A stretch of 64,000 nt of DNA from an uncultured Rhodospirillales bacterium (GTDB taxonomy: Bacteria; Pseudomonadota; Alphaproteobacteria; CACIAM-22H2), in NCBI GenBank assembly GCA_937926175.1, contig CALANV010000058.1, forward strand, positions 47,544-111,543. Direction: 5' to 3'. Under the pieces are notes generated by a model. The model searched no databases. It was not told where the DNA came from and saw only the letters and a program-made list of their open reading frames with translations. A program made the translations under genes and the position numbers. Numbering within the stretch: position 1 is the stretch's first letter; every line of letters starts with the position of its first letter. This document shows, one piece after another, positions 22,678 through 28,605 of the stretch.

Positions 22678-23619
22678 TCAGACCGGCGCGGGCATCGCGT
22701 CGGCCGGGATGATGGCGCCGCGATGCTGGACGACCGCACCCGCGACCGCATGGCCGTGTCCGACGGCCGCGTCGATCGGCAGGCCGGCGATGCGTGCGGC
22801 GAGATAGCCGCCGTTGAATGCGTCACCGGCCGCGGTCGTGTCGACCACGTTCGCGACAGGTTGTGCCGCGACCTCGATCACCGCGCCGCCGTCGGAGGCC
22901 AGTACCGGCTCGCTGCCGTTCTTGACGGCGATCTCGCCGACGCCGAGGGCCTGGAGCCGGGCGATGGTCGCGCGTGGATCCGCATCGCCGAACAGCATCT
23001 GTTCGTCGCCGAAGGTCGGTAACGCCACATCGGTTCGCCGCAGAACCTCGACATAGGCACGGCGCGCGGCCCCGGGATCCGGCCAGTTGCGCGGCCGGTG
23101 ATTGCTGTCGAACACGACCCGGCCGCCGCGGGCGCGGGCGCGATCGAGCGTCGCCAGCAGCCGCGCACGACCCGCCTCGTCGAGGATCGAGACGGTGATG
23201 CCCGACAGGTAGAGCCAGTCATAGCCGGCGAGCGCCGCCGACAGCTCCTCGCCGGCCGTGCCGTCGAACATGGCGCGCGCTGCCGCCTCGCGCCGCCAGT
23301 AGTAGAACGTGCGCTCGCCCTTGGCGTCGGTGCGGATCGCATAGAGGCCCGGCAGGCGATCGGGCCGCGTGCCGACGAGGTCGGTTCCCACACCCTCGCG
23401 CGCGAAGAAGGCCCGCATCGCCGCGCTGTAGGGATCGGTGCCGAGTGCAGTGGCGTAATCGACCTTGAATCCGCGCGCGCGCCCGGCGCGCACGAGATAG
23501 ACGGCGGTGTTGAACGTGTCGCCGCCGAAGGCGAGCTCCAGACGATCCTCGGACAGATGACGCAGTTCGATCATGCATTCGCCGATGGCGGCGATGCGGG
23601 GCGAGGCGGATTGCGGCAC
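22678..23619 (-). CDS. kdgK: PfkB-family sugar kinase, 2-dehydro-3-deoxygluconokinase-like
   Basis: Ribokinase-fold motifs: GGDTFNTAVYL at the N-terminus, DTTAAGDAFNGGYL near the C-terminus. Confidence 0.8.
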   Translation of the reverse strand: MPQSASPRIAAIGECMIELRHLSEDRLELAFGGDTFNTAVYLVRAGRARGFKVDYATALGTDPYSAAMRAFFAREGVGTDLVGTRPDRLPGLYAIRTDAKGERTFYYWRREAAARAMFDGTAGEELSAALAGYDWLYLSGITVSILDEAGRARLLATLDRARARGGRVVFDSNHRPRNWPDPGAARRAYVEVLRRTDVALPTFGDEQMLFGDADPRATIARLQALGVGEIAVKNGSEPVLASDGGAVIEVAAQPVANVVDTTAAGDAFNGGYLAARIAGLPIDAAVGHGHAVAGAVVQHRGAIIPADAMPAPV

Positions 23620-23860
23620 GGGCTCTCCTGGGCGATGCGACCATGAAAGAATACGCGCTCCGCTTGCGGAACGCGCGCACGGCGAACGGCGTGCCGCTAC
23701 GGTTTAGGGCGATCGGGCAAATCTGACAACTGCATGGTCGGTGCGGCTGATGGTTCCGCCGGCGCATGGCCGGCGGACGTACGTGGCAGGCAGGTCGGCG
23801 CAGGCCCGGGTGGGACGCAACCTTGAAGTCCCGTACGGCCGCCGTTTATCTAGGGGCCGG

Positions 23861-23908
23861 CGCGGGGACGACCCCGCGTTCCGTTCTTTGCGGCAGGGAC
23901 GACCCTGC
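23861..23908 (+). promoter_or_regulatory. guanidine-II (mini-ykkC) riboswitch: two hairpins with ACGA tetraloops
   Basis: Hairpin 1 CGCGGGG-ACGA-CCCCGCG (23861-23878), a 14-nt linker, hairpin 2 GCAGGG-ACGA-CCCTGC (23893-23908). About 20 nt upstream of the sugE SD and TTG start. Confidence 0.8.
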
Positions 23909-23928
23909 ACCACTGGCGAGGTGCATCA

Positions 23929-24246
23929 TTGGCCTGGATCGTCCTGATTCTCGCAGGTCTTTTCGAAGTCGGCTGGGCCGTGGGGCTCAAGTTCACCGAC
24001 GGGTTTACGCGGATCATACCGACGCTCGCGACGGTGCTGTCGATGATCGCCAGTCTCGGTCTGCTCGGGCTCGCGCTCAAGGAACTGCCGCTCGGCACGG
24101 CCTACGCGGTCTGGACGGGCATCGGCACGATCGGTACGGCGCTGGTCGGCATCGTGCTGTTCGGCGAGGCGGCGACGGTGGCCCGTCTCACGTCGATCGG
24201 TCTCATCGTCGCCGGCATCGTCGGGCTCAAGCTCGCCAACGGTTGA
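23929..24246 (+). CDS. sugE: SMR-family guanidinium/quaternary-ammonium exporter
   Basis: (M)[25 protein letters not shown]... 4-TM SMR with the conserved Glu. TTG start with SD GGCGAGG. Confidence 0.9.
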
Positions 24247-24272
24247 GCGGCATCAGCGAAACGCCGCAGCCC

Positions 24273-24320
24273 AAAAAAGGAAATGCGTTGGGTGGTGTGG
24301 CCGCCCAACGCATTCTGTAG
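24273..24320. terminator. bidirectional Rho-independent terminator (11-bp stem) between sugE and the micro-ORF
   Basis: aaaaaaGGAAATGCGTTGGGtggtgtggccgCCCAACGCATTctg. An A-run lies on the plus side and TCCTTTTTT on the minus side. Confidence 0.75.
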
Positions 24321-24368
24321 GTTAACCTATAGTGCAAATTGCTTATTCTAACGCACCGAACGAAGAAG

Positions 24369-24419
24369 TTACTTCTTCTTCTTCGCGGTCTTCTTCTTTG
24401 CTTTCTTCTTCGCTGCCAT
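24369..24419 (-). CDS. 16-aa poly-lysine micro-ORF MAAKKKAKKKTAKKKK
   Basis: Canonical SD AAAGGAG 8 nt upstream of the ATG, rare in this GC-rich genome. TAA stop. The terminator above lies about 50 nt downstream. Embedded in an AT-rich island. Confidence 0.4.
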   Translation of the reverse strand: MAAKKKAKKKTAKKKK

Positions 24420-24761
24420 GTTTGAGACTCCTTTTTCCGATGTGCCGGATCGACGCGGGCGCGAGAGGAGACGGATTTGTGGGTGCGAAGCGATGATGTT
24501 CCCGTCCGATCGAACGACGCCCACCCCTACGGATCGATCCGAACGCGTATAGAGCATCAGCAAAATCAACCCGGTGTCAACTAAATTCAATATGCAGGGG
24601 CTTGACAAAAGCCATCTACAATATCGTGCGGCCGCCACGAAACCTGGGCCCTGCCGGCCAGTGGAACTCAAGATGCGGGTAGAGCCGCGCCGGACGGAAA
24701 AGGGGAAAGTCGCGCCAACCTCCAGGCTTTGGCCACAGGCGCTGGATGAGGGGGCGACGCC

Positions 24762-27839: not shown

Positions 27840-28605
27840 GCCCGCGATATATGGCACCGGCGGGCGGGAAAGCCAATGGAGGTGCGGCGCCGCGTCGTAG
27901 GCACGCGGCGCCGCAGCAGGGACGGTCCGGCCGATTCTGGAGGCGAAGGGGACGAAAGCGGCCGGGGCCCCGAAGGAAACGGGATCGGTCTTCGGTCCGG
28001 GTGCTACATCATGCCGGCGATCGTTGCTATGACGACGAAGAGCGGCGCCAGCATCGAGGCGCGCCACATGGCATCCGCGCGTTCGGCCGATTGAGCTTTG
28101 CGCATATGACCTCCTCTCTCGTCCGAGGTCCCGCGCCGGAAGGGAGCACGGCGCGGGACGCTTCGGCCGCGATATTGCGGAAAGCGTGCCAGGCCGGGGG
28201 CGGCGCTGCCGGCCGGGATCAAGTGCCGGGAACGGCAGCGGTTTGCGCCGGTCGCGAAAATACCGCTCAAATCCGGTGCGGCGGCGCGTCCGTCGCAATT
28301 TGCAGCGGGGCCGTTGCGAAATGCGGTGCGGCGGGATTTGTTCGATTTCGTCCGGTATTTTCGTCGACCGACGCGGACTTGACGGCCGCCGGCCCGGCGG
28401 GTAGGGTCCGCGCCGTTCAAGGGACAATCGAGCCCCTTGGGCCCAGTCTCTCCTGAGCGAGACGGGTCTCCCCCAGTCCGCGAGTGTCGCGCACTGGGGC
28501 GCTCGTGTTTGTGCAGGTCCCCTCGCCGCGGCAAGCGCGGCACGGGGACCGGAACCAAGGTCCTCGCCATCCCTGCCGGCGGGCGAGGACGACAGGTAGG
28601 ACCGA

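Follow-up and report, generated by a model that had tools for sequence, protein, structure and literature searches.

The guanidine-II (mini-ykkC) class of riboswitches and its association with sugE/gdx genes have been in print since 2007-2017, and pairing of the linker between its two hairpins with the Shine-Dalgarno (SD) sequence is what is usually drawn for it. Each ACGR loop of such an element binds one guanidinium ion, and the C and G of both loops pair, so that hairpins P1 and P2 dock head to head. This docking exposes the SD, making the element a translational ON switch for genes of guanidine detoxification (PMC5558903, PMC9300104, PMC12186494). The structure has a linker of 7-40 nt, and each tetraloop is closed by two conserved G-C pairs, with 16 conserved nucleotides in total (PMC5558903). 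An element of this class has been described for E. coli sugE (PMC9300104), and the function of Gdx has been reviewed (PMC12186494). The guanidine-I, -III and -IV riboswitches have the same ligand and are associated in part with the same genes, SMR/Gdx among them (PMC12186494). Their architectures, however, are unrelated to that of the guanidine-II element.

Here we consider a leader found in a window of 64 kb (the whole stretch of DNA that was analysed). We propose that it is a canonical guanidine-II riboswitch at the 5' end of the mRNA for an SMR guanidinium exporter of the Gdx/SugE type, a reading to which we give a probability of about 93%. The assignment of the aptamer is firm, while what we say below of the expression platform is a hypothesis.

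All parts of the leader lie on the plus strand. P1 (23861-23878) consists of CGCGGGG and CCCCGCG around an ACGA loop at 23868-23871, and P2 (23893-23908) of GCAGGG and CCCTGC around a second ACGA loop at 23899-23902. Both hairpins are present in the minimum free energy (MFE) fold and in the covariance-model alignment. In each of them GG-ACGA-CC reads GGGACGACCC, which therefore occurs twice, with both tetraloops closed by two G-C pairs. The linker UUCCGUUCUUUGCG (23879-23892) has 14 nt, or 12 nt if the G.U pairs G23860.U23879 and G23859.U23880, by which P1 can be extended, are counted into P1. Either length falls inside the guanidine-II range, and 14 nt exceeds the approximately 7 nt that are enough to span the docked hairpins (PMC5558903). 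The SD region GGCGAGG (23915-23921, with GAGG at 23918-23921) is followed, after a spacer of 7 nt, by the start codon TTG (23929-23931), which lies 20 nt from the end of P2. A preliminary description of this DNA had claimed two ACGA-capped hairpins 14 nt apart, and these are in the sequence exactly as claimed. It had also placed an SD and a TTG start about 12 nt beyond the hairpins; both are present, but the gap between P2 and the SD is 6 nt.

This layout is that of the leaders of E. coli sugE/gdx and P. aeruginosa SugE, with which our leader shares the tandem ACGR hairpins, the linker range and a site immediately before the SD of an SMR/Gdx gene. Two enterobacterial loci, L077 and L078, have this layout too. 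No defining difference separates the present leader from those of E. coli and P. aeruginosa; what sets it apart is its UUG start and a P1 that apparently begins at the inferred transcription start.

A search with the Rfam covariance model for guanidine-II (RF01068) matches 23860-23907 over the full length of the model (positions 1-48 of 48) at 47.1 bits, with an E value of 3.3e-6, 15 bits over the gathering score of 32 and with maximal posterior probabilities throughout the alignment. It is the sole RNA family match at gathering level in the window, and the guanidine-I (ykkC), -III and -IV models find no match there or in the 40 homologous loci scanned. The class, which had been named earlier from the arrangement of the hairpins, is supported by the covariance model, by the homologous leaders and by the SugE/Gdx-type gene downstream. 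Two hairpins, ACGR loops, G-C closing pairs, linker, covariance-model score, gene context and covariation are all found as in guanidine-II.

The gene itself (23929-24246, plus strand, from the list of open reading frames) encodes a predicted SMR guanidinium exporter of 105 aa. Its designation as sugE/gdx, also proposed in the preliminary description, holds: the protein scores 143.8 bits with the NCBIfam SugE equivalog NF008512 (cut-off 126) and falls far under the respective cut-offs of the Qac, EmrE and Mdt models. Pfam PF00893 matches residues 1-93 over profile positions 1-93 of 93 (E 1.3e-28). Gdx-Clo (6wk5) is the best solved relative, at 107 bits versus 53 bits for EmrE. Like Gdx-Clo (PDB 6wk5/6wk8) the protein has 105 aa, aligned over residues 1-103, and the alignment keeps the central E13 together with W16, S42, Y59 and W62, which we take, following the literature on Gdx-Clo, to be residues of the binding site. 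By sequence the gene belongs to the Gdx subtype, and guanidinium/proton antiport is its predicted activity. The database name of the protein, 'quaternary ammonium compound efflux', is an older annotation; the association with a riboswitch suggests that the inducing substrate is guanidinium (PMC12186494).

The start codon deserves a comment. It is TTG in the window and in all 13 contigs of the same species that were fetched, and since all of these share it, it is not a sequencing error. The next relatives outside the species have ATG (L092) and GTG (L093), and the window carries one extra T at the start of gdx (CATCATTGG versus CATCA-TGG in the nearest relative). Two observations concern gene calls in this region. 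A database protein, P0002 (140 aa), matches the SMR protein at a near-identical 196 bits and is 35 residues longer; its extra length may come from a gene call that was extended upstream across the riboswitch leader. In the window itself, an open reading frame of 184 aa in another frame (23766-24320) overlaps the leader.

The exact Gdx protein is known solely from metagenome contigs of one species, whose leaders (L081-L091 and L094) are identical to that of the window and are therefore uninformative for covariation. Among GTDB genomes, the best species representative is 75-77% identical. Outside the species, L092 is the closest relative, with 91% protein identity, followed by L093 with 80%. The two retain both hairpins, GAGG and the stretch in between, with P2 and GAGG invariant in the window, L092 and L093, whereas the linker and the sequence 5' of P1 diverge. 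Further away, two ACGR-capped hairpins stand no more than 200 nt upstream in 43 of 80 homologous SMR loci, each from a different species in the genome collection. They are seen in Hyphomicrobiales, Rhodospirillales, Burkholderiales, Pseudomonas, Xenorhabdus, Citrobacter and Enterobacter. Among the loci that bear the riboswitch, the end of P2 is mostly 17-23 nt from the start codon. The Rfam gathering score is reached in 14 of the 40 homologous loci scanned.

Changes in the stems of these homologues are compensatory. We aligned gapless hairpin cores from 41 loci, anchored on the loops only. In this alignment 84% of stem cells are paired, versus 41-54% with slid partners, and changes on both sides occur in 12 of 15 stem pairs (seven of eight columns in P1 and five of seven in P2), the inner three pairs of the stems being demanded by the rule by which loci were selected. 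Every one of the eight tested P1 columns is paired in the majority of homologues. The covariation score is 0.51 versus 0.19 for shuffles, none of which (0/500) reaches 0.51. The fourth P1 pair, which is free of the selection rule, is paired in 41/41 loci and shows 13 changes on both sides. Next to the loops, three pairs are invariant G-C in the 41 homologues, namely the one that closes P1 and the two loop-proximal ones of P2; the second P1 pair is G-C in 35 of 41. Covarying stems together with invariant loops point to selection on RNA pairing.

Comparison of the three close leaders also suggests where transcription of gdx may begin. The putative -35 hexamer TTGAAG (23823-23828, plus strand) contains TTGAA, which is invariant in the window, L092 and L093 while its flanks diverge. 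The putative -10 hexamer TTATCT (23846-23851, plus strand) lies 17 nt past it and has T-A-T-x-T (23847-23851) in common with both relatives; L092 has TTATCT as well, and in L093 the two hexamers are TTGAAC and CTATAT. The spacer is heavily substituted. A scan with the E. coli-type sigma-70 consensus finds no promoter in 23550-24450, and the one proposed here comes from the phylogenetic footprint. If it is correct, the foot of P1, at about 23857-23860, would be where transcription starts.

The gene is monocistronic and converges on ftsY. It is divergent from a pfkB kinase gene (22678-23619, minus strand), which comes after an EamA transporter gene and whose product resembles 2-dehydro-3-deoxygluconokinase, scoring 369.8 bits with the equivalog model for this enzyme (under its cut-off of 400). 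A G+C-rich hairpin of 14 bp (24282-24314) lies 36 nt past the gdx stop codon and is not called by the terminator scan. Its U-tract is on the minus strand, which makes it the terminator of a small convergent ORF; it may also end the gdx transcript. That stand-alone ORF has 16 codons (MAAKKKAKKKTAKKKK, 24372-24422, minus strand), is preceded by a strong SD, AAAGGAG, 7 nt upstream, and is followed on its own strand by the same clean 14-bp hairpin with a T6 terminator. Metagenome contigs of the same species contain in-frame length variants of it, shorter by 15 nt in L083, L088 and L091 and by 3 nt in L085; slippage on an AAG repeat would likewise yield multiples of 3. The region of this ORF has no Rfam match. 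A permissive RNA-family scan of the window adds one match only, a sub-threshold ffh sRNA (RF01793) at 28455-28507 on the plus strand, which spans the full model length at 31.7 bits (gathering score 35, E 0.046).

Published work on the class (PMC5558903, PMC12186494), rather than the sequence, is the source of the claim, made in the preliminary description too, that the loops dock around guanidinium and so turn translation on; by analogy the same would hold for gdx. What would hide the SD when guanidinium is scarce is a matter for hypothesis. Our preferred candidate for the OFF state is a hairpin between the tail of P2 and the SD (23906-23925, plus strand), in which UGCACC (23906-23911) would pair with GGUGCA (23920-23925) across the loop ACUGGCGA. 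We prefer it because it is common to the folds of the window and of L093. Present in MFE folds, this hairpin takes up U23906-C23908, which belong also to the 3' strand of P2. In the free ensemble its pairs have probabilities of 0.54-0.81, and G23920 and G23921 of the SD are paired with a probability of 0.81. Neither arm varies in L092 or L093, hence there is no covariation here. The tail of P2 is the best local partner of the SD in our leader, whereas the proposal made for P. aeruginosa gives this role to the linker or P1's 5' side (PMC5558903).

The following sequence of events can be suggested. Without ligand, P2 would be marginally stable, and its 3' strand and tail (UGCACC) would pair with GGUGCA, burying the GG of the SD. 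Other partners may compete: CUUUGC of the linker with GCGAGG, and UCGUCCU of codons 4-6 with GGGACGA of P2. Ligand would cause P1 and P2 to dock, locking P2 and stretching the 14-nt linker. With its anti-SD partners lost, the SD would be freed together with the weak UUG start, and more exporter would be made as guanidinium accumulates in the cell. A fully formed P2 (all six pairs) has a probability of 0.37 in the free ensemble of the window and of 0.000 in that of L093; a hairpin formed in just 37% of the ensemble fits one that needs ligand-dependent docking to lock.

Opening the ribosome binding site (RBS; positions -13 to +3) in free RNA costs 7.2-9.0 kcal/mol, no more than with a shuffled aptamer (12/30 and 87/100 shuffles are at or above the window). 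Imposing the docked state lowers the cost by 1.1-1.6 kcal/mol only, in folding tools that represent neither kissing loops nor ligands. Over the 41 loci, sequestration of the RBS exceeds that of shuffles only weakly (Wilcoxon p 0.03). None of the three candidate SD pairings rises above chance in thermodynamic or comparative tests.

The linker was one of these candidates. CUUUGC (23886-23891) is complementary to GCGAGG of the SD, and the helix between them appears when P1 and P2 are enforced, and also in the MFE fold of L092. In the window the duplex has -9.6 kcal/mol versus -8.0 for shuffled linkers, which is not significant (z -0.77), and in the 41 loci all 300 cross-locus permutations give stronger pairing than is observed, so we rejected the linker as the anti-SD of the published model. 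Complementarity between linker and SD in these 41 SMR loci is weaker than that of shuffled linkers too (mean z +0.45). It seems that in this set such pairing is avoided rather than selected. A closing helix over the start codon, GGGCCG (23854-23859) with UGGCCU (23930-23935), was seen in the first fold and was dropped because the conserved promoter footprint sets the start at about 23857-23860, leaving most of the 5' arm probably untranscribed.

A different relation between SD and aptamer is seen in Bradyrhizobium. At five loci (L035, L043, L049, L053 and L066) the SD region directly before the ATG, positions -12 to -1, is GGAGGGTCGTC, the exact complement of the loop and 3' strand of P2, GACGACCC. 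L037 has a matching variant, GGCCGTCC versus GGACGGCC. Judged from these complementary sequences, this points to an OFF state specific to the lineage, in which the SD would pair with the ligand-binding loop itself.

Could the hairpins of our leader be something other than a riboswitch? In a genome of 67% G+C they might be G+C-rich palindromes that arose by chance, or an inverted repeat in DNA bound by a protein, with no role in regulating gdx. Single GG-ACGR-CC hairpins do occur at other sites in the window, and the sequestration of the SD in silico is not significant. However, GGGACGRCCC is found three times in the window versus 0.78 expected, and the tandem pair is found once, at the gdx leader, when hairpins with stems of at least 5 bp spaced 7-40 nt apart are searched for, and in 0/143 dinucleotide-preserving shuffles, so the arrangement is no by-product of base composition. 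Its recurrence before SMR genes of many genera, the covarying stems and invariant loops, and a covariance-model score so far above gathering make an accident or a DNA feature exceedingly improbable. Slightly less remote, and still very unlikely, is the suggestion that P1 is an intrinsic terminator or attenuator and that the control is over transcription instead of translation. P1 can be seen as a 9-bp G+C-rich hairpin followed by UUCCGUUCUUUG, a terminator-like scan flags 23859-23880 with the tail CCGTTCTTTG, and L092 retains a T-rich tail after P1. But this U-tract is weak and has interruptions, P1 is followed by CTTCCCCATATAT in L093, and over 41 homologous loci the linkers are rich in C (38% C, 23% U) and not in U; it is this lack of conservation and this composition that lead us to assign transcriptional attenuation a low probability. 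Moreover, published descriptions of the class are of a switch that acts on translation (PMC5558903, PMC12186494), and a P2 ending 6 nt short of the SD, with its spacing to the start codon conserved, is what control of initiation would lead one to expect.

Another alternative accepts the guanidine-II aptamer as genuine and departs from the published linker/anti-SD model in its expression platform. Here the OFF state would dismantle P2: its 5' strand and loop would pair with codons 4-6, its 3' strand and tail with the SD, and sensing of the ligand would be in direct competition with a clamp, internal to the mRNA, that covers the start site. Such a fold, in which GGGACGA (23896-23902) pairs with UCGUCCU of codons 4-6 and encloses the UGCACC/GGUGCA hairpin, is the MFE structure of the window from the inferred 5' end (-40.8 kcal/mol, z -2.2). 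In L093 this fold is much stronger: it has -42.3 kcal/mol and a z of -4.6 (0/200 shuffles) and makes up 50% of the ensemble. The low probabilities of a complete P2 in both leaders and the want of family-wide support for linker-SD pairing agree with it as well. Against it, the MFE fold of L092 has the linker-SD helix instead, and the cost of opening the RBS in the window is not above that of shuffles. A complement to the loop in the early codons, tried as a conserved OFF element, was rejected: it is as common in SMR genes without a riboswitch (14/42) as in those with one (11/40; Fisher p 0.64), and may simply follow from the M-A-W-I/V-V-L codons. P2 is invariant among the close relatives, for which reason no compensatory change accompanies the fold. 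On balance we consider a platform of this kind unlikely, though far from negligible. The narrower proposal, that in this alphaproteobacterial lineage the platform is a P2-dismantling clamp that includes coding sequence, with the derived UUG keeping basal expression low, is a shade more doubtful still. If it is true, guanidinium-driven docking of P1 and P2 must out-compete mRNA-internal structure that includes the gdx coding sequence.

Returning to the guanidine-II riboswitch as we read it, the element is already of a known kind; its class, ligand, type of mechanism and gene association have all been published, and routine Rfam annotation would label it. It has little significance beyond correct annotation. 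A by-product of the analysis is that the 41 SMR-associated guanidine-II leaders give linker-SD pairing no statistical support, and the expression platform of the class is still poorly defined. For the gene, the result marks the SMR protein as an exporter induced by guanidinium, and not as a generic 'quaternary ammonium/multidrug' pump. For its host, it implies that an uncultured alphaproteobacterium with 67% G+C meets guanidine stress.
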